NCBI GenBank assembly: GCA_044359815.1
Contig: JBIKLL010000001.1
Location: forward strand, 32,001 to 96,000
Origin: Pseudobdellovibrionaceae bacterium
GTDB taxonomy: Bacteria > Bdellovibrionota > Bdellovibrionia > Bdellovibrionales > Bdellovibrionaceae
Direction of reading: 5' to 3'
Length of the DNA: 64,000 bases
Position numbers and translations under genes: made by a program. Numbering within the stretch: position 1 is the stretch's first letter; every line of letters begins with the position of its first letter. Below are positions 11,901-30,076 of the stretch, piece after piece. The notes under the pieces are model-generated. The model worked only from the letters and a program-made list of their open reading frames with translations. It did no database searches and was not told the DNA's origin.

Positions 11901-12044
11901 AAACAGTTTTTTAAGTATCTAAATTTATTTTTACTTAAAAAGGTCCTCTGCGGAGCCTGGATGGCGGGGGCTTGCCCCGAGCAGAGAAGCAGGAGCTGTG
12001 ACCTTTTTAAGTAAAAATAAATTTAGATACTTAAAAAACAGTTT
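11901..12044 (+). repeat. Type 1 long hairpin element, copy 1
   Basis: Perfect 40-bp inverted repeat 11906-11945 / 12000-12039 around 54-nt core CTCTGCGGAGCCTGGATGGCGGGGGCTTGCCCCGAGCAGAGAAGCAGGAGCTGT. Confidence 0.95.
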
Positions 12045-12053
12045 ACAGAGGAT

Positions 12054-12701
12054 TTACCAGAGCCAGCCGACTGACAGCAGAAAGCTCAGATCGTTCCGGG
12101 TCGATTTTTCGATGTCCTCTTGATCTGCGGCTGAATAAAATCCGTTTTCAAAAGTCACTTCAGGTTTTTTGCTATAGCTGCGATACCCCAGCTCGACGGC
12201 CCCCCAGATATTTTCAACAAACAAACCTGCTGCTCCAATGACCGGATTGACGGCAAGTCCCTTACCGATTTGATAATCAGCATCTTGCAGATTCGTGATT
12301 TTTTTAAGCTTGGCACCATTGGTGCTGATCAAGCTGGCTCCGCCGTATAATTTCAAATTAAATTCGTCCCCTAATGGTGCCACTTGCTGTGACCAAAAAT
12401 AAAAATTCCCCCCGATTGAACTGACGGATCCTATTGCTGAAAATCCCAGCGAAAAATGCAGATCCAGATTTTGCAAAATAAAGTACTTAGCGCCGGCTCC
12501 AAAAATCCCATAGCTGGTATTCGCACCACCGCCCAAATCTGTGACAAATCTTTTGGCAGTTTTAATTTCAACAGTTTCTTTTCGAGCCTCGGTTTCTTCA
12601 GGATCTTTGATATCCTGATACCCTGGCAATTGGCAAAAAGCTTTACCCGATGTGAGGGTCAATAATACTGGAACCAAATATAAAGATATTTTTTTAATCA
12701 T
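12054..12701 (-). CDS. Hypothetical secreted protein, probable outer membrane beta-barrel
   Basis: Signal peptide, alternating beta-strand pattern, C-terminal aromatic (SVGWLW). Confidence 0.6.
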   Translation of the reverse strand: MIKKISLYLVPVLLTLTSGKAFCQLPGYQDIKDPEETEARKETVEIKTAKRFVTDLGGGANTSYGIFGAGAKYFILQNLDLHFSLGFSAIGSVSSIGGNFYFWSQQVAPLGDEFNLKLYGGASLISTNGAKLKKITNLQDADYQIGKGLAVNPVIGAAGLFVENIWGAVELGYRSYSKKPEVTFENGFYSAADQEDIEKSTRNDLSFLLSVGWLW

Positions 12702-12737
12702 TTAAAAAGCATAGCGATTGCTCAGAAACTGCGTCAA
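12702..12737 (-). promoter_or_regulatory. Sigma70-type promoter immediately ahead of the start codon (leaderless candidate)
   Basis: TTGACG-18nt-TATGCT-6nt-ATG(12701); no SD. Confidence 0.55.
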
Positions 12738-12777
12738 GCTCCTTGAGTATTGAATTATAAAAAGCTAGTTTTATTAA

Positions 12778-13581
12778 ATGCTGATGATCACAATCCCACA
12801 TTCCGGCGAACAAATCCCAGAAAATGCCAATTGGCTTAAAAAACTGCCCGAAGAAATTTTGATGTGTGACGTGGACCGTTTCGTCGATAGGCTTTATGAA
12901 CCCACGATTCAAAAATTAAATATCCCCTACATCAAAACCCAATGGCACCGTTACGCAGGCGATTTAAATCGATTGGCCGAAGACGTAGATTGCGATTCAG
13001 TTATTGGTAATCCCAATCCCAGTGGCCAATTTTCACGTGGGTTTATTTGGGTCAAAACCACGTTAAATTATAAACTTTTGCCCCAACCGATTTCAGCGAC
13101 TGATCACCAGCAACTGAAAGCTCTGATTTTTGACCCCTTTCATGCACAGATCAAAACGGTGTCGGAAACTTTATCAAAATCCCACAAAAATATTTATCAT
13201 TTGGATTTGCACTCGATGCCATCGGTGGGAACTTCTGAACACCGTGATCCAGGTGAAAAGCGTGCCGATATTGTCGTTAGCGACAGCAAGGGTAAAAGCT
13301 CCTCAAAAGCTTTTGTGGATTTAGTCATTTCCAGTTACAAAAACCAAGGCTTCAACGTGGCATACAATTGGCCCTATTTCGGTGGCCGTTTGACCGAAGC
13401 CTACGGTAAACCAACCCAGGGACATCACACTGTTCAGGTAGAGCTCAACAGAGGCCTTTATATGGATGAAACCAGCAAAAAGTGGCTCGATGGTAAAGCC
13501 TTAGACACTCAAAGCCGGTTATCTAAAGCCTTATCCAGTGTTTATGATGGTTTGAGGATTGCAGATAAGGCCATCATATAG
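12778..13581 (+). CDS. N-formylglutamate amidohydrolase family protein
   Basis: IPHSG, DRFVDRLY, DLNR, DLHSMPS, NWPYFGG, QVELNRGLY. Confidence 0.88.
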   Translation: MLMITIPHSGEQIPENANWLKKLPEEILMCDVDRFVDRLYEPTIQKLNIPYIKTQWHRYAGDLNRLAEDVDCDSVIGNPNPSGQFSRGFIWVKTTLNYKLLPQPISATDHQQLKALIFDPFHAQIKTVSETLSKSHKNIYHLDLHSMPSVGTSEHRDPGEKRADIVVSDSKGKSSSKAFVDLVISSYKNQGFNVAYNWPYFGGRLTEAYGKPTQGHHTVQVELNRGLYMDETSKKWLDGKALDTQSRLSKALSSVYDGLRIADKAII

Positions 13582-13623
13582 AGGGACTTAACAACAAAAG
13601 GTCCCTTAAATAAAGGGATTTAA

Positions 13624-15327
13624 ATGAAGTTGATCTCTGTCCTGGTATTTTTATTAGCTATTCAAAGTGAGGCCAGATTTTTATCTGCAGCTGAGCAATC
13701 GCTATTAGTGTCAGCCGAAAAAGGCGACCTGCAGGGCGTGGTGGATGCTATTAATCAAAAGGCCTCAATAAATGCTGCTGATTTTCATGACCATACGGCA
13801 CTGATGAAGGCTTCAGCCAAGGGGCACCTGGAAATCGTAAAATTACTTATCGAAAAAAGAGCCAATCTGAATCTTAAGGGCCTTGAAAAAGGCGCTGAAT
13901 CAACGTCTCACAAAAGCGACTCAGCTTTAATGATGGCCATTGATAGTGAAAAATACGATGTCGTCAAAGCTTTAGTTTTAGCAGGCGCTAACGTGAACCA
14001 AAAAGACATTATGCAAAGAACAGCCTTAGTAAAACTGATAGACAATTCCACCAATTTAAAACTCAAGAAAAAGATCAGCAAAGAAAAGCTTCTAGAGCTG
14101 GCAAAACTATTTATTGAGCACGGTGCTGATCTGAATTTGGGACGCAAAGAAGTCGTTCGAACAGATAAAAAAGGCAGATCCAAGACCACCATTGAATCAG
14201 AAGTTGAAACACCTTTGATGTTTGCAGCTGAAGGTGGACAGGCTGATTTGGTAGAATATTTGTTATCTCAAGGCGCTGATCCATCAATCAATGTATTGGA
14301 TCCACAAAATAACGACGTTGAAAATGCGATTGAGCTTGCAAAAGAAGCCAGAAAAAATCCTGAAAATAAAAAGTGTAAAATAACCAACACCGAAGCACTT
14401 AATTATTGTGATTACAAAAGGGTTATCCAGCTTTTAAATGACCCATCTTCTGCTGTTGGTGTAATGACACCATTTTTTGATATTCAATTGCTAGAGGCTG
14501 CAGAAAAAGGCAATTTAGCTGATATCGAAAAAGCTCTTCAGCAAGGCGCAAAAATTAATGCCCTGGATGAAGACGACGAAACCGCTTTGTATAAAACAGT
14601 AAAGACAAAAAATCTGCCGGCTGTTAAATTTCTGATTTCAAAAGGCGCTGACGTTAATTTAAAAACCACTCAAAGCGAAACTGCACTGTCTGCAGCTGTG
14701 GTCACTCAAAACTACGATATCATTAAAGCCATTGTTCAAGCCGGCAGTATGGCTGATCTGAAGGATCTGCAATTTAAAACTGCATTGATTGATCTGATAG
14801 ATGACGTTAATAAAGACGGCTACCGTTCATCGACGTTGTCACGAATGAATCAGTTTAATCTGATTCAAATGCTGATCGCTAAGGGCTCTAACCCCGAATA
14901 CGGTGTTAAATCAAAAACCGAAAAGCAAAAGGCAACAGAAGTCGTGATTATGTATTCGACTTTGTATACTGGCTTGATAGCTGCGGCTGATTTAGGAAAT
15001 GCTGATTTAGTCAGATACTTGCTTGCTACTAAAAGCCCCACGGGTCCTGCATTGGCTAATCCTGATGTGATCATCACAGATGACAGTTTGGATGTCTATG
15101 GCAGGGCTCTAGAGGTTGCTAAATACGTGGCCACTGATCCCACTGCTAAGAAAAATTGTAATCCTGGCAAGGCCGTGGCAGCCGGGGTTCACCCTTTGAA
15201 CGATCCTGATAATCAAAAACAATCAGTCAAAAACTACTGTGATTACCAAACTACGATTGATTTGCTGACCCAGGTCACCAAGGGAAAACCATTAGTCAGC
15301 AAATCTATGGAAAACGTCGAAGAGTAG
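13624..15327 (+). CDS. Secreted ankyrin-repeat protein
   Basis: Signal peptide; repeated TALM.A...GH.EIVKLLI..GA.VN ankyrin motifs; two duplicated modules each ending NYCDY. Confidence 0.85.
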   Translation: MKLISVLVFLLAIQSEARFLSAAEQSLLVSAEKGDLQGVVDAINQKASINAADFHDHTALMKASAKGHLEIVKLLIEKRANLNLKGLEKGAESTSHKSDSALMMAIDSEKYDVVKALVLAGANVNQKDIMQRTALVKLIDNSTNLKLKKKISKEKLLELAKLFIEHGADLNLGRKEVVRTDKKGRSKTTIESEVETPLMFAAEGGQADLVEYLLSQGADPSINVLDPQNNDVENAIELAKEARKNPENKKCKITNTEALNYCDYKRVIQLLNDPSSAVGVMTPFFDIQLLEAAEKGNLADIEKALQQGAKINALDEDDETALYKTVKTKNLPAVKFLISKGADVNLKTTQSETALSAAVVTQNYDIIKAIVQAGSMADLKDLQFKTALIDLIDDVNKDGYRSSTLSRMNQFNLIQMLIAKGSNPEYGVKSKTEKQKATEVVIMYSTLYTGLIAAADLGNADLVRYLLATKSPTGPALANPDVIITDDSLDVYGRALEVAKYVATDPTAKKNCNPGKAVAAGVHPLNDPDNQKQSVKNYCDYQTTIDLLTQVTKGKPLVSKSMENVEE

Positions 15328-15330
15328 TCC

Positions 15331-15512
15331 GAAACAGCGCTACCCTAAAAATAATTTCTAAAATCTAAATATTTTAAAGTACTTTAAAAGGTTACAGCAT
15401 CCTGCTTCATCCGCTCGGGCAGAGCCCCCGCCATCCTAGCTCCGCGGAGAACCATTTAAAGCAATTTAAAATATTTAGATTTTAGAAATTATTTTTAGGG
15501 CAGCGCTGTTTC
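15331..15512 (-). repeat. Type 1 long hairpin element, copy 2
   Basis: 63-bp inverted repeat 15331-15393 / 15450-15512 (4 mismatches); minus-strand core CTCCGCGGAGCTAGGATGGCGGGGGCTCTGCCCGAGCGGATGAAGCAGGATGCTGT. Confidence 0.95.
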
Positions 15513-15535
15513 AAACTGCCCTATTCGACGTTACT

Positions 15536-15958
15536 TTAAAACGGGATGTCGTCGTTTTGCTCAAAGCTAGGCTCAGGCCCAAAATCCTGGCTGTAATCAC
15601 CACCAGATTGAGTGGACCTTTCTGAGTTCGCACTTCCTAAAAACTGAACATTGTTAGCAACTATTTCTGTAGAATATTTCTTAACGCCACTGGGATCATC
15701 CCAGCTTCGAGTCTGCAATCGACCCTCAACATAGACTTGTCGCCCCTTAGACAGATGTTTAGCGCAGTTCTCGGCCTGTTTGCCCCACACCACCACACGG
15801 TGCCATTCGGTTTTTTCCTGCTTCTGTCCATCTTTGCTCAACCAAGATTCACTGGTTGCCACTGATAAACGGGCCACAGATTGACCACTGCCGACACTTT
15901 TTAGCTCGGGATCCTGACCTAAACGACCAACGATAATTACTTTGTTAACTCCTGACAT
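15536..15958 (-). CDS. ssb: Single-stranded DNA-binding protein
   Basis: [36 protein letters not shown]-terminal DDIPF; AAGGA SD before ATG 15958. Confidence 0.97.
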
Positions 15959-16060
15959 AATGTCCTTTCCGCCCAACCACACACGGTTGAGTCGCTTTGT
16001 GTTTGTTAAACACTGTCGTGACATAATAAAAGTGTCAAAGGGAAAAAATGTATTTACTGG

Positions 16061-17035
16061 TTACTGCAAAGCCCCAAAATTAGGGACCGATTCCGGACCG
16101 CTGGCGGATAATTTAAACTTAAATCGCGCCCCATCAGCAACAGGTGTTTTGTGCTGTTCAATAAAACTTAAAAACAATTTAGCCCTGTCTTCGAAACTTT
16201 TTTTGACTGTTATGTCGATATCAAAGGAATAACTGCCAGGCATGGGCATAATCCGGCCACCTAAATTCTGAATTTGCATCGACATGCCGCCTTTGATTGT
16301 CCCGGTGATTTCGTCAGCGCCTTTGCCAATCAGCCCTTGTTCAATCTGAAATCTGCCGGCCGATAGACGGCCCTTTAGCTGCAAACTGGAAACTTTAAGT
16401 TCTGGCAGATTCATTGGCCCCATGGGGGTGTTAACATTGCTTGGGGGAATTTCAAATTTCTCGACCTTTAAATCCACTTCCACATCTGGTTGCTCTTTAA
16501 AAGCAAAATCCGCAACGGCTGTGCTTTTTAAATCTAAATTTCCGCGCAAGGGAACCGGCAGATTCAATAATTCTTGCAAATCTTTTAAGGACAATTTCTC
16601 AGCTTCGATGGTGATTTTATTTTTCTCGACTCCATTTTCAGATTTGCCCCCTGAAGACAAACTGATATCCACATTTCCCTTTAAAAAACCCTTAGCATAC
16701 AAAGACCCACCAGGCTTTTGATAAATCAATGCAGATATTGAAGGCGACACGCTGATTTCGCCCACCGTGATGGCAGGGAAAGCCCGAGTTTCGACTGACA
16801 GATTTTCCAGATGTAATCCCATAGGCAAAATATTTATATCCATATGGTCAAACTGAACGTAAACCTGATTCTGGGTCGCTTTTGAAACCTGACTGGCCAC
16901 CAGATCAGACAAATCATCAAAGGGAAACAGTAAAAATAAAAACAGCAGAGTCGACAACAACGCCAAAGCAAATTTGGATTTATTGGACAAACACCACCTG
17001 AGGCCTATTTTTACGTATTCTAAGACCTGAGCCAT
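16061..17035 (-). CDS. gspN: Type II secretion system protein GspN
   Basis: N-terminal TM ending LFPFDDL; last gene of gsp operon. Confidence 0.7.
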   Translation of the reverse strand: MAQVLEYVKIGLRWCLSNKSKFALALLSTLLFLFLLFPFDDLSDLVASQVSKATQNQVYVQFDHMDINILPMGLHLENLSVETRAFPAITVGEISVSPSISALIYQKPGGSLYAKGFLKGNVDISLSSGGKSENGVEKNKITIEAEKLSLKDLQELLNLPVPLRGNLDLKSTAVADFAFKEQPDVEVDLKVEKFEIPPSNVNTPMGPMNLPELKVSSLQLKGRLSAGRFQIEQGLIGKGADEITGTIKGGMSMQIQNLGGRIMPMPGSYSFDIDITVKKSFEDRAKLFLSFIEQHKTPVADGARFKFKLSASGPESVPNFGALQ

Positions 17036-17694
17036 TATTTTTTACCCTTCTTGGGAGGCTCTGGTTCAGGCAAAGGCTCGATAATTTCTGGCACCTTTAA
17101 AACAATTAATCTGTAAATCACATCGTAATAACGTTCGTCCTCGCCGTTGGCGTTCATAATCATGTCTTTCATTTTCACCGAGGCACTGAGGGCCGTTAAC
17201 TGCTGACCCACGTCTATGATTTGCTTTAGGTTCAGTTTATTGACAACGACTTCAATGGTTCCATCAGACAACTCTTGCGGAAATAATCTTGAACCCAGTG
17301 GCACGGTCTCAACTGATTTTATCAAATCCTGCATGACCCGGCTGGCTTGCAGTTCAGTTTGAATCCGACTTTTCAGCGAATCAATAGGCGGAGGCATCGG
17401 AATTTCCGGGACCTCATTGGCTTCTTTGGCTGTTTTTAATAATTCCCTGATCAGACCTCGGCGTGATAAAAAATCTTCCACATTGGTCATAGACTGTGTC
17501 AGGTATCCCCATGGGGATGACAGAAAAATCAAAATAATCAAGACCACTGCAGAAATCGTCACAACTCTTTGCATGCTGGGACTTAAGTTTTCGTATTTGT
17601 CCTTCAGTTGCTGATAGGCTGCAGATTCTTCGGTTCGATCAACTAAAACCTTAAACTGTGATTGTAAATTATCGCGCAGATCTTGAAAATTCAT
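17035..17694 (-). CDS. Type II secretion system GspM-like protein
   Basis: YENLSP..QR followed by single TM and coiled coil; position after gspL. Confidence 0.6.
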   Translation of the reverse strand: MNFQDLRDNLQSQFKVLVDRTEESAAYQQLKDKYENLSPSMQRVVTISAVVLIILIFLSSPWGYLTQSMTNVEDFLSRRGLIRELLKTAKEANEVPEIPMPPPIDSLKSRIQTELQASRVMQDLIKSVETVPLGSRLFPQELSDGTIEVVVNKLNLKQIIDVGQQLTALSASVKMKDMIMNANGEDERYYDVIYRLIVLKVPEIIEPLPEPEPPKKGKK

Positions 17695-19358
17695 AATTTC
17701 TTCCCGGTCTGAATGCCGCGATCAACTTTGAAACTCATCGAAAACGGAAAGGTATTAGGTGGTCCTTGTCTGGTAGTGGGCGCCGTATTGACTTTGCCAT
17801 TCAAAGCCACTGCGCCCAAGTTTCTTTGCAGAACATTGATATCAGTTAATTTCCCAACAACGCCTTCAATAAAAACTGAATCGTCTTCAACCCTCAACGT
17901 CTTCACGCTGATTTGCATTTGTTCCCTGGGCGGAGCCGAGTCACTGATTCTTTTAACGATTTCAATGGCTGAATTCATCTGCGTAATACCTGCCAAAACT
18001 TTTAAATCCTGAATTTGTTTTTTCTGATCCTTAATGTATTTTCTGACTCCAGCCTCGTTAGCCTGTTTGCCTGATAGTTTTGCCACTGATTTAGCCTGAG
18101 CTTTCAATGCATCAGTGGCTTTATCAGCCAGTTCCAGGGACGCCGATTCCCTGAACAAAGAAAAAAAGTAAAAAACTAAAAACATGGCTGCCGACAATTG
18201 AATTGTTGGCCCCCATTGTTTCCAAACATTTTGAAAGGAATTAGATTGCCGAGCAAATTCTTGTCTTAAAAAATTAATCGCAGGATTTCTGGGTTTTTTA
18301 AATCCCTCAATGGCTAAGCCCAAAGCTATGCCAATTTTAGATTCTACTAAAATGTTTTTCTCGAATGGCAAATGGCCGTAATTAACCAAGGGATCAAATC
18401 GATTGACTGGGATTTCAATCATCTGCGTCAGCAGAGCCGAGATATTTCTGATATTGGCCACACCACCGCTGATCTGTACATTTTCAACTTCCACATTCAG
18501 ATCAGCTTTTAGCTCCAGCAATGTGATTTGCAGTTCGCGGCCCAGTTCTTTTAAACATTTGCTAATCACATCTGAAAACACAATTTGATCGTAAGAAGCA
18601 TTTTCCTTGGTTGGCAGCACAAACCCTTTGGTGTTGACCTCTTTGATGGCCTCCACATAGGGGATTTCATATTTTTGGGCGATGGCATCTGCCACTAATT
18701 TTCCGCCCCACAAAATGGTTCTGACATCGATTAGTTTTTGATTTTCAAATGTGCATACGATGGTTTTTGTATGGCCCAAAATTAAATTAATCTTGGCATG
18801 TCTGAGCTCTTTTGTGGGCCCCTCTTCCAGATTATAATTCGGATCCACAGATGGCGCCGCCATCCAATTTTCAACACAATTTGCAAATGCCAAGCCTTCC
18901 GGGGATAAAATATTAAGTTCAATCCCTGAATCTTTAAAAACATTTAAAACTTCTTGAACCCTCAGTTTGGGAGTTGCCACTGTCAGTGTTTCAGTTAGCT
19001 TTCCCCGAATGCGAATGATTTTGTTATCAAAGGCTGCATCTTCAGTGGCAAAAGGAACTTCTTCTTCAAGTTCAAATGGCAAACTTTTTAAAATTTTTAT
19101 TTTGTCCGAAAAGGGAAATAACTTGGTCCTGACACTGACTCTGTCTTGGCGCAATCCACACACAAATTTAGTCTTAGTCCCAGCGTATCTGGCTGCGACT
19201 TTTCGCAAAACTTCCAGAATTTCGATTTGCGAATCAAAGGCAGGGTTCTGCCCTAAAGTGTGCTCAAAATAGTCAGTAATGTGAAAACCTTTATTACTGC
19301 CCGTCAGCTCCACAATCTTGATACTGCTGGAACCTATGTCTATACCGATTGACTTCAC
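17691..19358 (-). CDS. gspL: Type II secretion GspL/PilM-like actin-fold protein
   Basis: IGIDIGSSSIKIVEL, ISGG, INFL..EF, then TM and periplasmic domain. Confidence 0.75.
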   Translation of the reverse strand: MKSIGIDIGSSSIKIVELTGSNKGFHITDYFEHTLGQNPAFDSQIEILEVLRKVAARYAGTKTKFVCGLRQDRVSVRTKLFPFSDKIKILKSLPFELEEEVPFATEDAAFDNKIIRIRGKLTETLTVATPKLRVQEVLNVFKDSGIELNILSPEGLAFANCVENWMAAPSVDPNYNLEEGPTKELRHAKINLILGHTKTIVCTFENQKLIDVRTILWGGKLVADAIAQKYEIPYVEAIKEVNTKGFVLPTKENASYDQIVFSDVISKCLKELGRELQITLLELKADLNVEVENVQISGGVANIRNISALLTQMIEIPVNRFDPLVNYGHLPFEKNILVESKIGIALGLAIEGFKKPRNPAINFLRQEFARQSNSFQNVWKQWGPTIQLSAAMFLVFYFFSLFRESASLELADKATDALKAQAKSVAKLSGKQANEAGVRKYIKDQKKQIQDLKVLAGITQMNSAIEIVKRISDSAPPREQMQISVKTLRVEDDSVFIEGVVGKLTDINVLQRNLGAVALNGKVNTAPTTRQGPPNTFPFSMSFKVDRGIQTGKKL

Positions 19359-19376
19359 ATGAAATCCTTTTCAAGT

Positions 19377-20603
19377 TTATCGCTCGTTCCAGTATACGAT
19401 TCGGGGCGGTCCCTTGGGAAGAGGTTCCTGCGGTTGCCCTGTATTTCCCTGAGGATTTGTGGGCGATGGATTGACATTGCTTCCATCATTGGGTTTAGGA
19501 GTGGATTTTATAATTGATTTTGCAACAGCTGTGGCTACAGAGCTGACATCAAAAACCACGACTGTGATTTCTTTTATATTGTTAGCGAATTCTCCTCGAC
19601 TAACGACCCGAAAGTTAAGCGCGGCATCAAATGCCAATGGCAAAGTTTCTTGCACTTCAGGTGGCACGTTGCCTCTGGATTGCGCGACAAAGGACCAGAA
19701 ATCCTGTTCGTTTGTAAAGGGCCCTCCGTTATCGGGATTGTCTCTTCTTTGCAAAATTAAATTCACAACTTCATCAGTCATCGATTTATCGATGGATTTT
19801 AAAACCTCTGGCGACGCATAGTTTGGATTAATGGCTCTTTGACCATAAACCGTTATGCGATCCTTCAGCATATCAAAAACAGTTTCAGTCATCCCTGCCA
19901 CCAAACGGATTTCGCCCACAGTTCTAAAAGCCCGATTGGGTGGATATCTTTCAGTGGTTTCCCCCAAAGATTCATACAATCTTCTTTCGTCCCCACCGTT
20001 CAGACTTTCCACATCCCCATCGACCCAATCAATCATGTTGTTGATGACTTCTTCAAATTTTAAATCTTCATTTTCGCGAGCCCATTCCTCGTCATTGGCT
20101 TTTTTGTTTTCAAAAATCCCCACTAGCAGTTTTTTCGTAGAATCTGCTAAAGCTTTAGAGGGAGAGGCCAAGTCATTCACATCAATTTTTGAACCTTCGT
20201 CGTAAATTTGGACCGAATAGGTCGCATCCATTTTAGATTCTTTTAATTGCGCGTTTAAAATATCCTGGTCGACAGTCAATGTATCCTCACCCAATACAGG
20301 GGGCCACATAAATGGAAAGCTCCAAACCAGATCCAACATTTTCATAAACTTAGGATTGGTTTTTCCTGCCATTGTTCTGGCTAGCGAGGCATAAATTTTT
20401 ATCCGCAGTAGACTTAATTGCACACCTGATTTCGCCGCGTAATAGGCTTTCAACCGACTGATGCTCTGAGCATGGATTCCGTATTCGACTGAAGTTTCAT
20501 AGGTGATTTCTGTCACCAAAAACAAAATAATAACCACGGTGAACATTGCCAGGATTATTGCCACACCTCTTTGGTTATTAAGCGGATTCTTGTATGATTT
20601 CAT
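19377..20603 (-). CDS. gspK: Type II secretion minor pseudopilin GspK
   Basis: QRGVAIIL prepilin-like end, AYYAAKSG, DEGSKIDVN, IDWVDGD, INPNYAS. Confidence 0.88.
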   Translation of the reverse strand: MKSYKNPLNNQRGVAIILAMFTVVIILFLVTEITYETSVEYGIHAQSISRLKAYYAAKSGVQLSLLRIKIYASLARTMAGKTNPKFMKMLDLVWSFPFMWPPVLGEDTLTVDQDILNAQLKESKMDATYSVQIYDEGSKIDVNDLASPSKALADSTKKLLVGIFENKKANDEEWARENEDLKFEEVINNMIDWVDGDVESLNGGDERRLYESLGETTERYPPNRAFRTVGEIRLVAGMTETVFDMLKDRITVYGQRAINPNYASPEVLKSIDKSMTDEVVNLILQRRDNPDNGGPFTNEQDFWSFVAQSRGNVPPEVQETLPLAFDAALNFRVVSRGEFANNIKEITVVVFDVSSVATAVAKSIIKSTPKPNDGSNVNPSPTNPQGNTGQPQEPLPKGPPRIVYWNER

Positions 20604-21424: not shown

Positions 21425-21920
21425 CGGGCATCCCCACTTTGACGTCCTTGCTATAATCCACAAAATATGTGGTCACCGAATTGGTGAGGGGCTTTCCTGA
21501 TGGTGGCGTGAAGATCACCGTCACTGTCATTTCCTTGACTGATTTTGCAATAGTGTCTGTCAGCTGCTTGATAATACTGAGGGTCATCTCGTCGGCACCA
21601 CCGTCCTTTGAGGTCAACACCGTTGTTAAATCAGGAAACTCCAGTTTTTTGGATGTTAGTTTCCAAGTGTACTGCGGGTATTCGCTACCAAAATCATCTG
21701 ACCTGTCCTCGGGAATTTCATCCAAGGATTTATTTCTGTACTCGATTTCTAATTCTGTAATCTTTCGCTCAAGCAATGCCGCAATCTCAAATGATGTCTG
21801 AGTTTTTCTGAGTCTTGAAAATGCTGATCCCCAAGAATTTGCCAGCAGCAACAAGGCCCCTGACAAAATCATCATTGCCACCATGACTTCTATCAGTGTG
21901 AATCCCTTTTTTTTACTCAA
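21417..21920 (-). CDS. gspI: Type II secretion minor pseudopilin GspI
   Basis: KGFTLIEVMVA motif; position in operon. Confidence 0.8.
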   Translation of the reverse strand: MSKKKGFTLIEVMVAMMILSGALLLLANSWGSAFSRLRKTQTSFEIAALLERKITELEIEYRNKSLDEIPEDRSDDFGSEYPQYTWKLTSKKLEFPDLTTVLTSKDGGADEMTLSIIKQLTDTIAKSVKEMTVTVIFTPPSGKPLTNSVTTYFVDYSKDVKVGMPGG

Positions 21921-22566
21921 TCCTTAAATCCTTTAATCGGGTTTCTTTCTCGATCACATCTGTAAAACCAGTCAGCGGATTGATCACCAGGGTCCAATTG
22001 ACTTCTTTTTTATTGGTGATCAAAATGGCTGCTTTTTCAACCAAACCTTCTGGTGAAAAATAAACGTAGGCTTCGTTATCGCTATTCGCACCTGTACGCG
22101 ATGAGGTTTCAACAAAGCCAAAACTAAATCCATCAGGTAATTTTTTAACTCCTTTAAAAAATTTCTCGGATTTTGAAAAAGGATTTGAAGGAGCCTCGTC
22201 AGTGCCCACTGATTTGTCCTTTTCAGCTTTTATGGATTCATCGGTTTTTGCCAGTACATTTCCATTAGCGGCTTCAACCCAATAGCTGTAAGCACCGTCT
22301 TCCATTTTAAAAACTATTCTGTGGGTCATGTTTTTTACACGGGCTTCGTTTCGAACTTCTCGGGACAGAACCGATAAATGCCTAGCAACTGCTTTAACAT
22401 TATTTTGTGGGCTTTTTATCCTGGGGATCCCCAGCACAACAATGGTGCTCAGGATCGCCAGAACGATCATAATTTCTACTAAGGTAAATCCCTTAATACT
22501 ATTACTGTAATTCTTCAGCTGTGATGTCTTTGTTTTTACCATCACCGCCTTCTTTTCCATCAGCAC
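21913..22566 (-). CDS. gspH: Type II secretion minor pseudopilin GspH
   Basis: KGFTLVEIMIV motif, YFSPEG; start uncertain (overlaps gspG). Confidence 0.75.
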   Translation of the reverse strand: MLMEKKAVMVKTKTSQLKNYSNSIKGFTLVEIMIVLAILSTIVVLGIPRIKSPQNNVKAVARHLSVLSREVRNEARVKNMTHRIVFKMEDGAYSYWVEAANGNVLAKTDESIKAEKDKSVGTDEAPSNPFSKSEKFFKGVKKLPDGFSFGFVETSSRTGANSDNEAYVYFSPEGLVEKAAILITNKKEVNWTLVINPLTGFTDVIEKETRLKDLRIE

Positions 22567-22930
22567 CTAAACTCTTCAGGTTGTAAGTACCGCCGCTAGA
22601 TTCATAAACAAAACCATTTGACCATGCATCTGGTGGAACCTTTTTCATGTAAGGATCAGGTCCCCAGTTAGAACAAGCAGAATCAGCAGTGGATAACCCA
22701 TCTAAGCTGGGTGGGTATTTACCACAGTCGGTGTAATACAGATTTAGAGCTTGTGCGATTTGACCCATGATCAATTTAGTTTGGCTGAATTTTGATTTAT
22801 CCAATCGACTCATCACTGTTGGCAACAAAACTGCTGCCAGTCCACCGATAATCATCAACACGATCATGATTTCTAATAAGGTCATACCCTTTTGATTTAT
22901 TTTTTTTAAAGAACTGAAAATACCATTCAT
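22502..22930 (-). CDS. gspG: Type II secretion major pseudopilin GspG
   Basis: KGMTLLEIMIV, YP.SL.GL, WGP.Y, DAW, SLGADGKEGG.G...DI. Confidence 0.92.
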   Translation of the reverse strand: MNGIFSSLKKINQKGMTLLEIMIVLMIIGGLAAVLLPTVMSRLDKSKFSQTKLIMGQIAQALNLYYTDCGKYPPSLDGLSTADSACSNWGPDPYMKKVPPDAWSNGFVYESSGGTYNLKSLGADGKEGGDGKNKDITAEELQ

Positions 22931-22974
22931 AGTGAGTCCTCATTTCTGCAAAATGCTGATTAAGAAATCCTAGG

Positions 22975-24195
22975 CTAACCCGAAATATTTGTCATCTCAA
23001 ACATTGGAATCATTACGGCAAACACAATCATTCCAATGACAAATCCCATTATGACCATGACAACAGGACCCATAAGGCTTGTTAAACCCTCTACTTTATT
23101 TTTAACTTGAAAATCATAGGCATCTGATACTTGGATCAGCATGTTTTCCAAATCGCCTGTTTTTTCTCCAATGTTAACCATGTGAATCACCAGTGGTGGA
23201 AATTGTCCCGATTTTCTCAAGGGGCCAGCAATGGATTCCCCCTCTGAAATATTGCTTCTGGCGTCATCAATGGCTTTGGCGATCAATGCATTGTCCACAA
23301 CATTTCTGACAATCCCCATGGCGTTCAGCATAGGCACACCACCCGTCAACAATGTAGCCAGTGTTCTGGTAAATCTGGCCACGGCGACTAAGCGATTCAT
23401 GTCTCCAAAAAGAGGCATCTTCAGCGAAATGGCATCCCAGCTTTCTTTACCCGATGGAGTTCTTTTCCAATTCTGAAACAAAAAAAATGCTAACACCAAA
23501 ACACCTAAAATTATGTACCAGTAATTCACCATTATGGCGCTAAAATCAAAAACTATAGTCGTGTACCAAGGAAGCTTTAAATCCGGTCTGGATTCAAAAA
23601 TCGCTACCATTTTTGGAATCACAAAGACAAATAAAAATCCCAAAAGCCCCAGTGTCACCACCAGCATCAACACAGGGTATGTCAAAGCACTTTTGACTTT
23701 GGATTGCAGTTCATTTTGCGCTTCAGTAAATTCAGCTAACCTGATCAAAATAGTATCCAAGGTTCCCGACATTTCACCGGCTTCACACATAGTCACATAA
23801 ATGGGCGAAAAAATATTTGGATACCGGGACAAAGTTTTATAAAAGGGCGAGCCCTCATTGACCAGATTTTTACATTCGGCAACGACTTCTTTAAGGGTCG
23901 GATTTTCAACCTGTTCTGAAACCGCATTCAGAGCATCCACCAAGGGGATATTGGCTTTTAGCAATGTCGCCAGCTGACGAGTCATTAATGAAATGTCTTT
24001 AACACCAACCCGCTTTGAGCTTCCACCGCCCTTTTTCTTGGTGCCAGTGTCTACTCGTTTTTTGTCTTTCAAATCGACAACGTAAATCCCGTCTTTTTTC
24101 AATTTCACACGGGCTGCACGGATATTGTCAGCATCAATTATGCCTCTAGTATTTTTCCCATCCTTAGATAAACCTCGGTATTCAAATACAGGCAT
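22975..24195 (-). CDS. gspF: Type II secretion inner membrane protein GspF
   Basis: TRQLATLL, AGEMSGTLD, SALTYP, IGEKTGDL. Confidence 0.93.
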   Translation of the reverse strand: MPVFEYRGLSKDGKNTRGIIDADNIRAARVKLKKDGIYVVDLKDKKRVDTGTKKKGGGSSKRVGVKDISLMTRQLATLLKANIPLVDALNAVSEQVENPTLKEVVAECKNLVNEGSPFYKTLSRYPNIFSPIYVTMCEAGEMSGTLDTILIRLAEFTEAQNELQSKVKSALTYPVLMLVVTLGLLGFLFVFVIPKMVAIFESRPDLKLPWYTTIVFDFSAIMVNYWYIILGVLVLAFFLFQNWKRTPSGKESWDAISLKMPLFGDMNRLVAVARFTRTLATLLTGGVPMLNAMGIVRNVVDNALIAKAIDDARSNISEGESIAGPLRKSGQFPPLVIHMVNIGEKTGDLENMLIQVSDAYDFQVKNKVEGLTSLMGPVVMVIMGFVIGMIVFAVMIPMFEMTNISG

Positions 24196-24198
24196 AAA

Positions 24199-25887
24199 TT
24201 ATTGATCCAATTGTGTGTTTGAAATCAGCTCTTCAAAAGTTGTGATACCGCTGAGCACCTTTTGTATACCATGGTCCCTAAATGTTTTCATGCCATTTGC
24301 GGCTGCCATTTTTCTGATTGTTGCACCGTCTTTACGCTGCATGATCAAGGACCTAATCTCCTCGTTCATCACCAATAATTCGGCGATCACAGTTCGACCT
24401 ATATAACCCTTTTGATTGCATTGACTGCATCCGATGGCTTGGTGAGTGTTTGCTTTTGCAACATCAGCTCGTGTTAACCCAAAAGCATTTAATTCAAAAT
24501 CAGAGGGGGTGTATTTAGCTTTGCAATGGGGACACAGAACTCGGATCAGACGCTGAGCCACCACACCTAAAATCGATGTCGCAATTAAAAAAGGTTCTGC
24601 TCCAATATCAATCAACCTTGGAAAAGCTCCTGAAGCATCGTTGGCGTGGATGGTTGACAGCACTAAGTGACCCGTCAACGAGGCATTGATGGCAAGCTCT
24701 GCTGTTTCCAAATCCCTGATCTCACCCACCATTATAATATCTGGATCTTGACGTAAGAAGGCTCTTAAACCTGCAGCAAAGGTCAGACCTATTTTGGAAT
24801 TCACTTGCACTTGGCCAACTCCGTGAATCCTTTGCTCGACGGGGTCTTCGACGGTCAAAATATTTTCGCCAGGTTTATTTAGTTTTTGCAAACATCCATA
24901 CAAGGTCGTTGATTTACCAGAACCAGTAGGACCTGTAACAATTAAAATTCCGTAAGATCGTTGAATCAATTCATAAAGGGTTTTTAAAATCTCATCGCCA
25001 AAACCTAATTGTTCAAGTTCCAAAACCACATTGGATCTGTCCTGCAAACGCATCACGATGCGCTCGCCATGGGACGTCGGCACTGTGTTCATACGAATAT
25101 CAATGTCTTTACCGCCGACCTTTAACGGAATCCTACCATCCTGAGGAAGTCTTTTTTCGGCGATATTTAAATTGGCCATGACTTTAAGTCTTGAAGTGAT
25201 TGAGTTCTGTAATTTCTTGGGCGGCTTAAAAACATCAAACAACACCCCGTCTATTCTAAATCTGACGGACATGTCTTTTTCATAAGGTTCAACGTGAATA
25301 TCAGAGGCTTTTTCTTTAACCGCTCTGAACAGCAAAGAATTCACTAATTTAATGACGGGAGCATCGTCTTCACCGGCTTCCAACAAATCCACAATAGGAT
25401 CATCCAGATCATAATCTTCTTCTTCAATTTCCTCTAAACCTGCCAAATTAGCCGTGGATTTTTCATAAACCCTGTTAATGGCATCCTGGATTTTTTGTTG
25501 AGTGGTCACCAGCGGTCTGATTTTTTTGCCAAACATCACGCGCAAATCATCTAGGACTTTTAAATTAATAGGATTGCTGGTCAATGTGACCAATTGATCG
25601 CCCTCTTCCTTGTAAGGCAATATCCCATTTGATTTTGCAAAATTAATCGAGATCCCTCTGACTAAATCTGGAGAAATATCATTAACAGGAATGTCCTTGA
25701 TAAAATCAAACCCCATTTCTTTGCACAGCTCATGAACCAGCTCTTCAGCTGAAGAAAAATCTTTGGCGGACAAATTCTCACCAACAGAAGTGATCCCGTT
25801 ATAGGATGCCGTCCCCAGCACAACCTTGATCTGATCTTCAGTCATGGTTGTGCTTTTTAAAAGTAAGGTTTGAATATCTGTCGCCAT
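24199..25887 (-). CDS. gspE: Type II secretion ATPase GspE
   Basis: ASDIHVEP, Walker A GPTGSGKST, LRQDPDIIMVGEIRD, Zn-binding CxxC pairs. Confidence 0.95.
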   Translation of the reverse strand: MATDIQTLLLKSTTMTEDQIKVVLGTASYNGITSVGENLSAKDFSSAEELVHELCKEMGFDFIKDIPVNDISPDLVRGISINFAKSNGILPYKEEGDQLVTLTSNPINLKVLDDLRVMFGKKIRPLVTTQQKIQDAINRVYEKSTANLAGLEEIEEEDYDLDDPIVDLLEAGEDDAPVIKLVNSLLFRAVKEKASDIHVEPYEKDMSVRFRIDGVLFDVFKPPKKLQNSITSRLKVMANLNIAEKRLPQDGRIPLKVGGKDIDIRMNTVPTSHGERIVMRLQDRSNVVLELEQLGFGDEILKTLYELIQRSYGILIVTGPTGSGKSTTLYGCLQKLNKPGENILTVEDPVEQRIHGVGQVQVNSKIGLTFAAGLRAFLRQDPDIIMVGEIRDLETAELAINASLTGHLVLSTIHANDASGAFPRLIDIGAEPFLIATSILGVVAQRLIRVLCPHCKAKYTPSDFELNAFGLTRADVAKANTHQAIGCSQCNQKGYIGRTVIAELLVMNEEIRSLIMQRKDGATIRKMAAANGMKTFRDHGIQKVLSGITTFEELISNTQLDQ

Positions 25888-25902
25888 TTTTCCTATTCTA
25901 AT

Positions 25903-28251
25903 CTATCGCTGATTGGTTTCAACATTTCCCTCAGCTGGTGCAGTTTGTTGCGCCCTTAATTTGTCAGCCGTAGTACCAAATGGGTCTTTGCCGCCTGTCG
26001 CCTTTATATGATCAAGCCTGTCATCCAATTTTTTTGACAATAATTTATTAGCATCCTGCGAACTGCGGATGATTTTTGGAGTCAAAAATATTGTCATATT
26101 GGTTTTACTGACTCCCGTTTTTCTGGATTTAAACAGCCAACCAATAATGGGGATATCGCCCAGCAATGGCACCTTAAAAACATCTTCGGTTTGTTCGTCC
26201 TTCATCAATCCGCCCAGCACCGCGGTGTCACCATTGCGCACCACTATGTTGGTTTCAATCTTTCTGGTCGCCAGTGGTTGCACCTGAGTTTTAAAAGCTT
26301 CAACAGTCGTGATCTGACTGAGCTGCTTAACGCTGCTTTTTATTTCAAGCCTGATCGAATTCGACGTCGGACTGATAAATGGTTTTATCTTGAGCGAAAT
26401 ATTAGCATCTTCCAGTTGTGGTGTGACCACTGTCGCGGCTCCATTAACCCCAGGAGTCTGCGTAAAGCTTGTGGCAACCTTATCACCGACTTCGATCAAG
26501 GCCTCTTGATTATCTAGGGCCAAAATTTGTGGCGTCGATAAAATATTTGCGTTCGCGTTTTTCTTTAAGAAACTGATAAAACCCAGCAAACTGTTTATGG
26601 TTGTGGTCGTATTGTTGGTAGGATTTGTGATGGTAACTTTGTCATTGGAACCAAATCCCAACACTGTTCCTGTACCACCCTGAGGACTCATCAAATCTAA
26701 CAATGATGTGTTTAATCCATTGAATCCAACTTTGCCTGCACCTTCATTAAATTTGAAATACCCGATTTCATAGGCAAATGAATCCGTGGCTTTCATTTCC
26801 ATAATGATGGCTTCAACGTAAACTTGATCCCTTGGGATATCAATTTTTGCTAACAGATTTAACACCACTTCGTAATCTTGCTTGCTTGCCACAACAACAA
26901 GGGAATTTGTTCCTTTGTCAGCTGTGATTTTAACATCACCACCAAATATTTCCTGAGGCCCGGCAGCGACACCCGAAACCGGCGAAATAGCCGGCGGAGA
27001 TCCCGATGAACCTGATCCAGACGATCCTGTTGCTTTCGGACCAGCCTCTTTTGCGATTCCAGACAGAGTCTGAGCGATTTTTTCAGCGTCACCGTGTTTG
27101 ACGTAATACACGTACACGCCACCAGCATCCTCGGGTCTGATTCTGAAATCCAATTGCACTAATAATTTTCTGATTCTGGAAGTACCGGCTTTGTTACCAA
27201 CAACAATCAACGAATTCGTTCTGTCATCAGGAATAACCATATAATAGGCTGATCCCTGCGAACCTTGTGTTTGGTTTCTGGTGAATCTAGGCACTCCTGA
27301 AGAAAACGTACCACCCTGCCTGTTGTTGGTACTGTTTTGACCTTTGTTGACGATCTTATCAATCAGATCAGCAATGTCTTTTGCCTTTGCAAACTTGACC
27401 GGAATGACTTCCAATTGGTCTTCAAAACCAGGGATATCCAATTGGCTGATGATCTTCATGATGCGATCAATGTTCGAACCAAAATCTGAAATGATCAGTG
27501 AGTTGGTGGGTGAATAAATCGACATCTCACCATCTTTTGAAGTCAGAATCCTAAGCTCTTTGTTAATCAAATCGGCAGAAATATGCTTCAAATGAATGAT
27601 TCTGGTAATCATCTGATCGGCATTGGGATAATAGGTTCCCGAGTAAGTCTCAATGCTGTCACGTTGCGAATTTCTGGCAGATCTGATTTTCAAAAATCCA
27701 CCTGATGGAACAATGGCAAATCCATTGATCGCCAGTGCCGATAAAAAAGCTTTGTAGGCTTCTGCCACAGTGATTTTGCTGGGAGCTACAATCGTGATTT
27801 TACCCCTGACACCCTGATCGATGATAAAGTTTTTCCCGGTCAATTCACTGATGGCTTTCACGATGTCTGTGATATTAGCATCAACAAAATCAAAGCTTTC
27901 AATAATTTCAGGAAAATTATCATTGGTGATGTCTTCAATCCCAGCTTTAGCAAATTTGTCTTTTTGGGCTTTTGATAAAACTCCGCCCTCTTCCTTTTTG
28001 GCAGCAGGCCCTTGAGCGCTGTCAAAAGCACCTTGCGAATTTGAAAACCCACCCATTGAAGGCGGCGGCGGAGGTGGCGGCGGTGGGAAATTCCCACCTC
28101 GATTAAAATTACCCATCCCCGGTGGCGGCGGTGGATCCTCATCAAAATCATCAATCTGAGCAAAAACACTTTGCAGAACAAATAACTGCAACAGCAGCAT
28201 CAGCCCAAACATCCAGATCACTTTGCGAAAATTTTTAAAATTCATATCCAC
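25903..28251 (-). CDS. gspD: Type II secretion secretin GspD
   Basis: N domains (TNSLII, DRTNSLIV), QVYVEAIIME, KVPLLGDIPIIGWLF; proline-rich N-terminus. Confidence 0.93.
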   Translation of the reverse strand: MDMNFKNFRKVIWMFGLMLLLQLFVLQSVFAQIDDFDEDPPPPPGMGNFNRGGNFPPPPPPPPPSMGGFSNSQGAFDSAQGPAAKKEEGGVLSKAQKDKFAKAGIEDITNDNFPEIIESFDFVDANITDIVKAISELTGKNFIIDQGVRGKITIVAPSKITVAEAYKAFLSALAINGFAIVPSGGFLKIRSARNSQRDSIETYSGTYYPNADQMITRIIHLKHISADLINKELRILTSKDGEMSIYSPTNSLIISDFGSNIDRIMKIISQLDIPGFEDQLEVIPVKFAKAKDIADLIDKIVNKGQNSTNNRQGGTFSSGVPRFTRNQTQGSQGSAYYMVIPDDRTNSLIVVGNKAGTSRIRKLLVQLDFRIRPEDAGGVYVYYVKHGDAEKIAQTLSGIAKEAGPKATGSSGSGSSGSPPAISPVSGVAAGPQEIFGGDVKITADKGTNSLVVVASKQDYEVVLNLLAKIDIPRDQVYVEAIIMEMKATDSFAYEIGYFKFNEGAGKVGFNGLNTSLLDLMSPQGGTGTVLGFGSNDKVTITNPTNNTTTTINSLLGFISFLKKNANANILSTPQILALDNQEALIEVGDKVATSFTQTPGVNGAATVVTPQLEDANISLKIKPFISPTSNSIRLEIKSSVKQLSQITTVEAFKTQVQPLATRKIETNIVVRNGDTAVLGGLMKDEQTEDVFKVPLLGDIPIIGWLFKSRKTGVSKTNMTIFLTPKIIRSSQDANKLLSKKLDDRLDHIKATGGKDPFGTTADKLRAQQTAPAEGNVETNQR

Positions 28252-28253
28252 CC

Positions 28254-29156
28254 CTACTTAATTTTATAATTGTAATCAATTTTTTGACCGTCTCGTTCAA
28301 AGCTCAGGCTCAGATTGTTTGTATTTTTTAGAGAACCATAAAGCTCCATGGCCTTGGCTGGACTGTCGATTTTTTCTCCGTTCACTCCGCTCAGACAATC
28401 ACCCACTTGAAACTTTAACTGGGTATAGATGCTTCCAGGCTGAATGTTCAGAAACTTGTAGCATTCAATTTCACCGTTGGCGTTGCGCTTAGGAGCCATC
28501 GCTGCCTGCTGCAGAACTTGAGCCATATTAGCCGTGTATTTTAAAATATCTGCTCGCTTAACTTCGAAAGTATTCGGAGCAGTTTCCCTGACTTCTGAAT
28601 CGCCACCGCCGCCTGCCGCAGGAGCTGCTTGAGCAAAAGATAATTTACTGCCTTGAGTCTTCATCTCGATGTATTCAAGCCTGTTGTTATTGGTGTTTTG
28701 GAAAATAATTTTCCCGCGAAGCACTTCCTGCAACAAAGCCATGCCCTCGATGTCTCGTCCGGGTGAAAACGGCAGAACCGTGTTTTTGCTTTTGATTTCG
28801 ACATTTGCGATAGATTTTTTAGGATTGGAATGCACAATGGTCCCCACCAAGGTCAACGGCAAGCTTGACGGTACTGGAACATCATTTCGCTCACTGCCTG
28901 GAACCTCACCCTTAGGGACAATGGCATCAGGGATTTTGCCGTCCCAATTAAAAATATTCCTGGTCACAATCGTGTTTAGATAGGATCTGGAAACAGTCTG
29001 AGAGGTCACTTGTTTTTTGGGCTTACTGGGTGGAGGTTGAGTCGGGATCATCAGGTCCCGATAATTCATAATCATCAGGTCAGCAATGCAGTAGCCGATA
29101 AACACAAACAGCAAGTAAGGTGCTAAAGTTTTTGCGAAATTTCGAAATTCATTCAC
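28254..29156 (-). CDS. gspC: Type II secretion protein GspC (HR + PDZ)
   Basis: TM, RNIF, LTLVGTIV, C-terminal PDZ (GD.LSGVNG); first gene of operon. Confidence 0.85.
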   Translation of the reverse strand: MNEFRNFAKTLAPYLLFVFIGYCIADLMIMNYRDLMIPTQPPPSKPKKQVTSQTVSRSYLNTIVTRNIFNWDGKIPDAIVPKGEVPGSERNDVPVPSSLPLTLVGTIVHSNPKKSIANVEIKSKNTVLPFSPGRDIEGMALLQEVLRGKIIFQNTNNNRLEYIEMKTQGSKLSFAQAAPAAGGGGDSEVRETAPNTFEVKRADILKYTANMAQVLQQAAMAPKRNANGEIECYKFLNIQPGSIYTQLKFQVGDCLSGVNGEKIDSPAKAMELYGSLKNTNNLSLSFERDGQKIDYNYKIK

Positions 29157-29277
29157 GTCATCGTCCTTGATAACTGGTCCAGATAAAAATTCTACCTTTT
29201 GACGGAAGCCTAGTGTAGCTCAAACACCCGAACTCTACCTTAGGTCAGAGAGATTGAACCTAGCTGGCCCCTTTGCA

Positions 29278-29440
29278 AGTTGGTGAACTTAAAATTCAAA
29301 AAACTAAATCTATGATTTTACTAAAAAAGACCGCAGCTCCTGCTTCTCTGCTCGAGCAAGCTCCCGCCGTCCGGGCTCCGCAGAGGGTCTTTTTCAGTAA
29401 AATCATAGATTTAGTTTTTTGAATTTTAAGTTCACCAACT
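29278..29440 (-). repeat. Type 1 long hairpin element, copy 3
   Basis: 55-bp inverted repeat 29278-29332 / 29386-29440 (1 mismatch); minus-strand core CTCTGCGGAGCCCGGACGGCGGGAGCTTGCTCGAGCAGAGAAGCAGGAGCTGC. Confidence 0.95.
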
Positions 29441-29482: not shown

Positions 29483-29986
29483 CTAGAGCGCTAGTTGGTT
29501 TAAATCTTTCCCGGTTAATCGGTAAACGGTCCATTCATCCATGGGTTTTGCTCCCAATGACTTGTAAAAAGCAATGGCTCTTTCGTTCCAATTCAAAACT
29601 GACCAATCCAAACGTGGGCATCCGCTCTGCACAGCAATTTGTGCCAATCTGGCAAACAGATGTTTTCCAATTCCTAGGCTTCGAAACTGCGGCAAGACAA
29701 ATAGGTCTTCCAAATACATCCCAGGCTTTCCCAAAAAAGTTGAAAAGCTATTGAAATAAAGCGCAAACCCAACGCTTTCACCATTTCTGCGCGCCATTAA
29801 AACCTTAGCAAATTTATTTTCACCAAATAAATTTTGCCGCAACTGATCTGGATCCAACTTGACTTCATTTTCTAATTTTTCAAACTCTGCCAATTTATTA
29901 ATAAACAGGATAATGGTGGATAAATCGCTTTCGCTCGCAAATTCAATATTTAAAAGGCTTTTGTCAGACAATTCGATTGGGTTCAT
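29483..29986 (-). CDS. GNAT N-acetyltransferase (diamine/spermidine acetyltransferase-like)
   Basis: LAEFEKL, FSTFLGKPGMYLEDLFV, R..GIG, VLNWN..AI.FY..LGA. Confidence 0.88.
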   Translation of the reverse strand: MNPIELSDKSLLNIEFASESDLSTIILFINKLAEFEKLENEVKLDPDQLRQNLFGENKFAKVLMARRNGESVGFALYFNSFSTFLGKPGMYLEDLFVLPQFRSLGIGKHLFARLAQIAVQSGCPRLDWSVLNWNERAIAFYKSLGAKPMDEWTVYRLTGKDLNQLAL

Positions 29987-30076
29987 TACTAAGTCTATAC
30001 TGGACTTTCTAAAGACCCTGCAAGAAATTATTAATTTGTGATTCAATTCCTAACAAATTCATGGGAAGTTATTATT

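Follow-up and report, generated by a model that had tools for sequence, protein, structure and literature searches.

What is the sequence that recurs three times in one stretch of the genome of a member of the Pseudobdellovibrionaceae, with a well-conserved centre set between long inverted arms that resemble each other only close to that centre? The stretch in question, here called the window, comprises 64,000 nucleotides (nt) of assembly GCA_044359815.1 (contig JBIKLL010000001.1, positions 32,001 to 96,000, forward strand). The original prediction, made from its letters, took the three copies for a structured RNA module displayed on a long stem in 3' untranslated regions, possibly bound by a protein such as CsrA. 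The pairing observed within this genome and across genera bears out a conserved multibranch module on a long stem. With moderate confidence, the copies can be explained as expanded and diverged elements of the TwoAYGGAY class, which would work as a folded single strand with protein-docking loops, carried on a stem adjacent to stop codons.

The three elements occupy 11901-12044 (+), about 15313-15532 (-) and 29278-29440 (-), all at the positions noted earlier, and their coordinates, inverted arms and shared core confirm them as copies. Each has a G+C-rich core of 53-56 nt between A+T-rich arms. In copy 1 the core (11946-11999) lies between arms of 45 nt at 11901-11945 and 12000-12044, which are 98% complementary; in copy 2 the core (15394-15449) lies between arms of 73 nt at 15321-15393 and 15450-15522, which are 89% complementary and continue in weaker pairing out to 15313 and 15532; in copy 3 the core (29333-29385) lies between arms of 55 nt at 29278-29332 and 29386-29440, again 98% complementary. 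The cores align well with each other, and the arms do so near the core only. Written as a 49-nt pattern, the copy-1 core has 0.00 expected occurrences in shuffles of the window.

These copies are members of a family of about 62 intergenic long-hairpin repeats, found throughout a genome (G000) that is assembled as 2.95 Mb in 125 contigs with 41% G+C. A profile built from the three window cores identifies 63 places at E<0.01, and the covariance model R1 yields 62 matches, with scores of 102.6, 84.7 and 94.7 bits for window copies 1 to 3. Arms of 44-149 nt are present in 57 copies, giving whole hairpins of up to about 340 nt, while the remaining six are cut by contig ends or truncated. The core is of type 1, as in the window, in 45 copies and of type 2 in 12. 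A second, unrelated family of nested inverted repeats, with arms of 31-87 nt, occurs in the window at 31862-32171 and 45980-46262, and a stretch similar to it flanks one copy of the hairpin repeat on contig C20.

Written on the alignment of the 45 type-1 copies, the structure consists of an 18-bp inner basal stem and a helix P1 (CUCYGC/GCRGAG) that encloses hairpins A (GCC-YGGAY-GGC) and B (GGGC-NNN-GCCC), followed by hairpin C (AGC-AGGA-GCU). In copy 1, read on the forward strand, P1 spans 11946-11986, where CTCTGC at 11946-11951 pairs with GCAGAG at 11981-11986. It encloses hairpin A at 11955-11965 (GCC-UGGAU-GGC, with GGA in the loop) and the G+C-rich hairpin B at 11967-11978 (GGGG-CUUG-CCCC, without GGA), and hairpin C at 11988-11997 (AGC-AGGA-GCU) provides a second GGA loop. 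The two hairpins first described, A and B, exist and covary, and what had been described as a 3' tail is really the third hairpin, C.

This fold is kept by compensatory changes, within the genome and across Bdellovibrio-related genera, in all five helices, as the covariation expected from the three window copies would have it. Among the copies of this genome, 95.4% of the alignment cells are paired, compared to 82.2% in shuffles and 36-50% when the partners are slid; changes on both sides occur at 24 of the 35 pairs, and none of 500 shuffles matches any of these measures. The own-genome copies are kin and their counts overstate the number of independent events, so that 17 copies from other genomes form the stronger test. 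Here 92.9% of cells are paired and 30 of the 35 pairs are compensatory, with at least two compensatory pairs in every helix, in an alignment that was fitted to the model and thus leans towards the structure. The exchange of CTCTGC/GCAGAG for CTCCGC/GCGGA, which had been read as compensatory in copy 2, is real and general: pair 23-59 of P1 is U-A in 23 and C-G in 22 of the 45 own-genome copies, with no non-pair, and other genera add G-C and A-U, completing all four Watson-Crick types. Hairpin B shows G-C to A-U changes at two pairs, and its stem sequence varies freely between genera, while the closing pair of hairpin C is A-U in 35, G-C in nine and G-U in one of the same 45 copies. Single-sequence folding gives the sense strand greater stability than the antisense one in each of the three window copies (-41.7, -29.5 and -41.1 compared to -40.3, -21.4 and -34.7 kcal/mol for copies 1 to 3); the folding z-score of copy 2 taken alone (-1.25) is not significant.

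The loops are conserved together with the helices. The loop of hairpin A contains GGA in 42 of the 45 type-1 copies and in all 17 copies from other genomes, and that of hairpin C in 33 of 45 and 16 of 17, respectively. Both loop GGAs are kept in 32 of the 45 type-1 copies, at a spacing of about 35 nt. In the window copies, the loop sequences are CUGGAU, UAGGAU or CCGGAC in hairpin A and CAGGAG or CAGGAU in hairpin C. Three GGA motifs had been proposed at the outset; the two in loops are conserved across genera, and the third, in the junction GCGGAG, is specific to this genome.

In type-2 copies, a longer alternative 3' module (...GAGCRAYYUGAG..CGAUACGAAAYAAAGAGCUGU) replaces the 3' strand of P1 together with hairpin C (for example at G000:C33:10613-10681, C39:5636-5704 and C4:1101-1161). 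Hairpin A is also absent in about ten copies, several of them of type 2. Similarity between arms cuts across the core type, which suggests that modules have been exchanged between copies. Loop GGAs or hairpin C are missing from a number of own-genome copies, and many of the 62 are probably decaying.

The relation of this family to known RNAs was examined with Rfam. At gathering thresholds, the window matches only a tRNA, whose gene lies at 59338-59420 (+). Once the filters are made permissive, TwoAYGGAY (RF01731) comes out as the best match; it scores 34.5 bits in copy 1 (gathering threshold 43) and is found on the core-sense strand only. Models of plant microRNA precursors match both strands; they merely reflect long A+U-rich hairpins and were set aside. 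TwoAYGGAY has been listed among probable RNAs whose function is unknown (Weinberg et al. 2010, PMC2864571). According to a recent preprint, the class is multi-copy, its accepted members include lineage-specific extensions with extra hairpins, and its expansion in Pseudomonas is called "mobile-element-like" (preprint 10.64898/2026.09.22.753630). Bdellovibrio is not mentioned in the preprint's main text, and a literature search on intergenic palindromic repeats of Bdellovibrio found nothing on such elements.

The present family shares with TwoAYGGAY a basal stem bearing hairpins with (A)YGGAY terminal loops, an elongation of that stem rich in A+U, as in the consensus of the Rfam model, and a multi-copy, intergenic distribution with very uneven copy numbers between genomes. 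The basal stem and the two GGA-loop hairpins are all present and covarying, with hairpin A nested alongside a third hairpin within the extra helix P1. The differences are that there are three hairpins rather than two, hairpin A being nested with the GGA-less hairpin B inside P1, and that the arms of 44-149 nt differ in sequence in every copy. The arrays of 5-6-nt repeats upstream and of REP sequences downstream, which have been reported for TwoAYGGAY in Pseudomonas, were not seen beside these copies, although no systematic search for them was made. The exact motif AYGGAY is absent from both loops of the three window copies, which have YGGAY or AGGA(G/U) instead. Exact AUGGAU does occur in hairpin A of eight other copies of this genome (L038, L040-L042 and L048-L050; L037 has AAGGAU) and in hairpin C of three of the 17 copies from other genomes. 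A bridging sequence was found in genome G157 of the same phylum, the sole genome among 151 of the phylum with an RF01731 match over the threshold: it scores 49.1 bits with RF01731, above the threshold of 43, and 47.4 bits with R1 over its full length, and the two models therefore overlap on real sequences. The family can be read, from its sequence and predicted fold, as a diverged three-hairpin subfamily of TwoAYGGAY, albeit not a member by Rfam's own criterion.

Related genomes that carry the element have 1-12 copies each, and the family is expanded in this genome relative to them. Matches to R1 occur in nine of 24 other genera of the same family, with 2-12 copies; in none of 16 genomes of the order that lie outside this family, for which the filters were stricter; and in at least ten of 150 other genomes sampled across the phylum. 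In one genus, all six sampled genomes carry one or two copies each. A pattern scan of species-representative genomes listed 80 loci, of which six match R1, and among the matches listed all six are Bdellovibrio records, namely B. bacteriovorus strains s4 and kdesi, three Bdellovibrio sp. isolates and one metagenome-assembled genome; all named carriers are thus Bdellovibrio. The other 74 loci come from G+C-rich genomes and match by chance. Five Bdellovibrio genomes have the element at one orthologous locus (L061:1457-1638 in G008, aligned with L150, L153, L113 and L105). There the core is nearly identical throughout, and the inner arms, though paired within each species, bear no relation from one species to another. 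Contigs from four sequencing runs, which carry no information on strand or level, give a patchy cover of this locus by relatives. A 398-nt contig in two aquatic runs (X4 and X5) has the same 61-nt core as L061:1515-1575, with two differences, between different but mutually complementary arms.

The distribution of wobble pairs points to one preferred strand, as do the strand-specific, sub-threshold matches to TwoAYGGAY. In the core and inner stem, the ratio of G.U to A.C mismatches, read on the core-sense strand, is 29:4. Outward along the arms it is 22:2 for the innermost 20 bp (p=3.6e-5), followed by 4:4, 18:21 and 41:27 in successive stretches. The wobbles of the arms had been taken as a sign of the functional strand, and this holds for the inner 20 bp but fails further out. 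Taken together, these counts are moderate evidence for selection on the core-sense single strand in the core and inner stem, and for its absence in the outer stem. Split by gene context, the ratios are 6:0 for sense-tandem, 1:1 for antisense-tandem and 16:1 for the rest, numbers too small for use.

With genes called crudely, as non-overlapping open reading frames of at least 100 amino acids, all 57 copies are intergenic. Among the 52 copies with neighbours on both sides, 31 lie between convergent genes, ten are in tandem arrangement with the core in sense, 11 in tandem with the core in antisense, and none lies between divergent genes. The genome-wide shares of convergent and divergent gene junctions are 16.2% and 16.8%, so that among the copies convergent junctions are enriched (p=1.7e-12) and divergent ones depleted (p=1.2e-4). 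In 14 of the 21 tandem cases, the hairpin overlaps, or ends no more than about 30 nt away from, the stop codon of whichever gene points at it, with a longer spacer to the start of the next gene, irrespective of the direction of the core. The distance between hairpin end and stop codon is 0-27 nt in most of the tandem cases. The hairpin as a whole therefore occupies transcript-end positions, and its core has no fixed polarity relative to its neighbours. Of the proposed location in 3' untranslated regions with consistent polarity, the placement at gene 3' ends, after stop codons, is confirmed, and the consistent polarity is not. Within the window, copy 2 (on the reverse strand) is situated between the stop codons of an ankyrin-repeat gene (+, stop at 15325-15327) and ssb (-, gene end at 15536), and copy 3 (also on the reverse strand) lies downstream of, and in sense to, a gene for a GNAT acetyltransferase (29483-30046, -). 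An empty site was sought through ssb in metagenome contigs. The element was present in none of 80 loci, the best relative being only 78% identical, and these loci did not define the insertion borders.

The arms evolve in a manner of their own. Their inner 45 nt differ on average by 24% from the closest arm of any other copy and by 38% from a typical copy, compared to a nearest-copy divergence of 6.5% for the core, yet within a copy only 3.4% of positions are non-complementary, and this value is lower than the nearest-copy divergence in 56 of the 57 copies. Pairing runs at least 10 nt beyond detectable homology between copies in 37 of the 57. The G+C content is 11-17% in the inner arms and rises to about 40%, the genome average, at their outer end. 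Hairpin ends differ in every copy, and neither target-site duplications nor shared termini were found in the 57 copies. From arms that diverge fast and remain self-complementary without shared termini, we infer that the outer arms are kept complementary by a concerted process at the DNA level, likely template switching or conversion within the palindrome; intrastrand template switching is known from quasi-palindromes. In some copies an arm extends over the final codons of a flanking gene (for example on C103 and at C33:10613). Outer pairing is imperfect there, and these overlaps therefore do not prove outward copying. A bolder conception, which is entertained tentatively and appears doubtful as a whole, would make the long stem a self-templating palindrome, in which one arm is recopied from the other by intrastrand template switching during replication, so that the arms change rapidly but remain near-perfect partners, and the hairpin grows outward into unique flanking DNA until it reaches the ends of neighbouring genes, sometimes rewriting their last codons. 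The core would then be the only part under sequence selection and may dock CsrA, turning the 62 copies into a distributed decoy at transcript ends.

In the explanation favoured here, that of an expanded and diverged TwoAYGGAY relative, the element would function as a single strand, most likely RNA, that is folded and read in core-sense direction, and its two GGA loops would dock a dimeric RNA-binding protein, for which CsrA is the best candidate. The long symmetric stem may act as, or replace, a two-way transcript-end hairpin, which would explain its free orientation to neighbouring genes. The outer arms would be kept complementary by the DNA-level process described above rather than by base-by-base selection, and many of the 62 copies would be decaying passengers of the expansion. 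The genome has one csrA gene (90.5 bits on PF02599), and several GGAs in hairpin loops alongside csrA are what the sequence of a CsrA-sequestering small RNA would present. As in CsrB, RsmY and RsmZ, the GGA motifs are placed in short hairpin loops in a genome with csrA. Unlike those small RNAs, the family has only two loop GGAs per copy, is made of dispersed repeats instead of one or two dedicated genes, coexists with a csrA that is paired with fliW, and shows no evidence of a promoter or terminator. CsrA binding has been proposed, not validated, for TwoAYGGAY as a small RNA in one article (PMC4333381) and proposed again in the preprint (10.64898/2026.09.22.753630). For Bdellovibrio bacteriovorus, CsrA is reported to show activity in a heterologous reporter assay, its regulon being described as little known (PMC13443453).

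Several observations weigh against this explanation. The excess of G.U pairs is absent beyond the inner 20 bp and does not appear in the copies from other genomes (5:4), some of the G.U pairs recur at one position and may have a common origin, and the bias would equally result from a folded DNA strand. The kinship with TwoAYGGAY is distant: the seven RF01731 matches in the genome score 24.4-34.5 bits, none reaching the gathering threshold, and one of ten copies from relatives attains E<0.1 on this model, at 35.7 bits. The core is antisense to the preceding gene in 11 of the 21 tandem cases, and the orthologous Bdellovibrio locus is the spacer between prpD and prpB, where the element is antisense to both; transcription of a sense RNA would therefore call for a promoter of its own. 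A promoter-like match of at least 9 of 12 positions, directed inward, is found in the 5' arm of only nine of 57 copies, compared to three of 57 directed outward. Of 56 copies, 25 have a T run of at least three at the 3' boundary, compared to 29% of random 12-mers, a weak terminator signature. Thirteen of the 45 type-1 copies are without one or both loop GGAs, and all 12 type-2 copies are without hairpin C, several also without hairpin A, with arms that are still as perfect as those of other copies. With regard to CsrA in particular, one or both loop GGAs are lost in 25 of the 57 copies, and csrA resides in a flagellar cluster with the order flgK (C-terminus), flgL-like, csrA and fliW (L001, G000:C116:44328-47486). 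In csrA-fliW systems, the known antagonist of CsrA is the protein FliW, not an RNA.

Two other explanations compete with that of a docking RNA. The family may be a selfish DNA repeat like REPINs or miniature inverted-repeat transposable elements (MITEs), copied as a single-stranded DNA hairpin by an HUH/Y1 transposase that recognises the core, without any RNA function, the inner-stem excess of G.T deriving from one folded DNA strand. We consider this rather unlikely, despite the contrast of 62 copies here with 1-12 in relatives, the strictly intergenic location, the perfect arms of copies devoid of GGA loops and the Pseudomonas expansion of TwoAYGGAY, which the preprint (10.64898/2026.09.22.753630) reads as mobile-element-like. 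The family resembles REP and REPIN elements in being composed of dispersed intergenic hairpin repeats at gene 3' ends, with complementary arms and strong differences in copy number; here, however, a conserved structured centre is combined with variable arms, and the layout of a REPIN is the reverse. A transposition footprint is lacking, as there is no target-site duplication and there are no shared termini, and the direct repeats at the boundaries of the 57 copies measure 0-3 nt in 55 of them (0 nt in 18, 2 nt in 28, 3 nt in nine, and 4 and 7 nt in one each). The differing ends and the lack of target-site duplications do not fit a classical MITE, which has conserved terminal inverted repeats. 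Two candidate enzymes are encoded in the genome. A RAYT-like protein of 219 amino acids (G000:C8:9501-10160, that is L071:1234-1893, on the reverse strand) scores 72.4 bits on NF047646, where the cut-off is 80. Its gene is, however, flanked by a 40-nt inverted repeat (L071:1207-1246 and 1985-2024) of a separate, REP-like family (AAAAGAGACCGTACGACTTTTTCTGTCTACAG), with 54 copies genome-wide that often form inverted pairs at distances of 100-350 bp, and a link of the element to this gene, as of a REP or REPIN to its cognate RAYT, was rejected on that account. An open reading frame of 211 amino acids with a weak match to Y1_Tnp (HUH) occurs in eight copies (G000: C23:186-821, C48:48162-48797, C56:2966-3616, C47:11949-12584, C49:93316-93951, C100:633-1268, C125:2378-3013 and C8:23373-24140). 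The copies are 87-92% identical to that on C48, and a short tandem-repeat array, differing in its unit, precedes each. Homologues are multi-copy in 24 of 40 related genomes. This family does not track the element: across 41 genomes there is neither consistent adjacency nor co-occurrence, two complete genomes with the element (2 and 9 copies) have no homologue found by this query, and many genomes have the protein but not the element. Moreover, a core kept at an orthologous locus in five Bdellovibrio genomes and loop GGAs kept across genera would not be expected of junk.

Alternatively, only the stem may matter, as a transcription terminator or a 3'-end protecting hairpin for the flanking genes, with the core as a passive spacer that stabilises the palindrome. 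Copies that abut stop codons in either orientation, the preponderance of convergent junctions (31 of 52, with no divergent ones) and the lack of strand bias in the outer arms are all in keeping with such a role. So are eight related metagenome ssb loci, which have short hairpins downstream, several of which are ordinary terminators flanked by A or T runs, at the place where copy 2 sits here. This explanation is nevertheless quite improbable, given that three covarying hairpins and two loop GGAs would not persist across genera in a passive spacer, and that the core diverges by 6.5% from its nearest copy compared to 24% for the arms. The T-run signature is weak, and a terminator consensus scan flags none of the three window elements, the only match inside them being a short stem in the copy-3 core. 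In the scan of the whole window, promoter-like and terminator-like sites are no more frequent than in shuffles of it.

The explanation as a folded, protein-docking relative of TwoAYGGAY bears on a class of elements that is widespread, with copies that can number in the hundreds within one genome, without demonstrated function. Cultured Bdellovibrio predators with one or two copies at conserved loci, set against an uncultured relative with about 62, make this subfamily a convenient system in which function can be studied apart from expansion. The element appears to be built in two layers, in which selection acts on one strand of the core and inner stem and the outer stem undergoes strand-neutral, concerted evolution; the latter points to a DNA-level mechanism that shapes natural hairpin repeats. 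A demonstrated CsrA-binding RNA would be new in the Bdellovibrio lineage.

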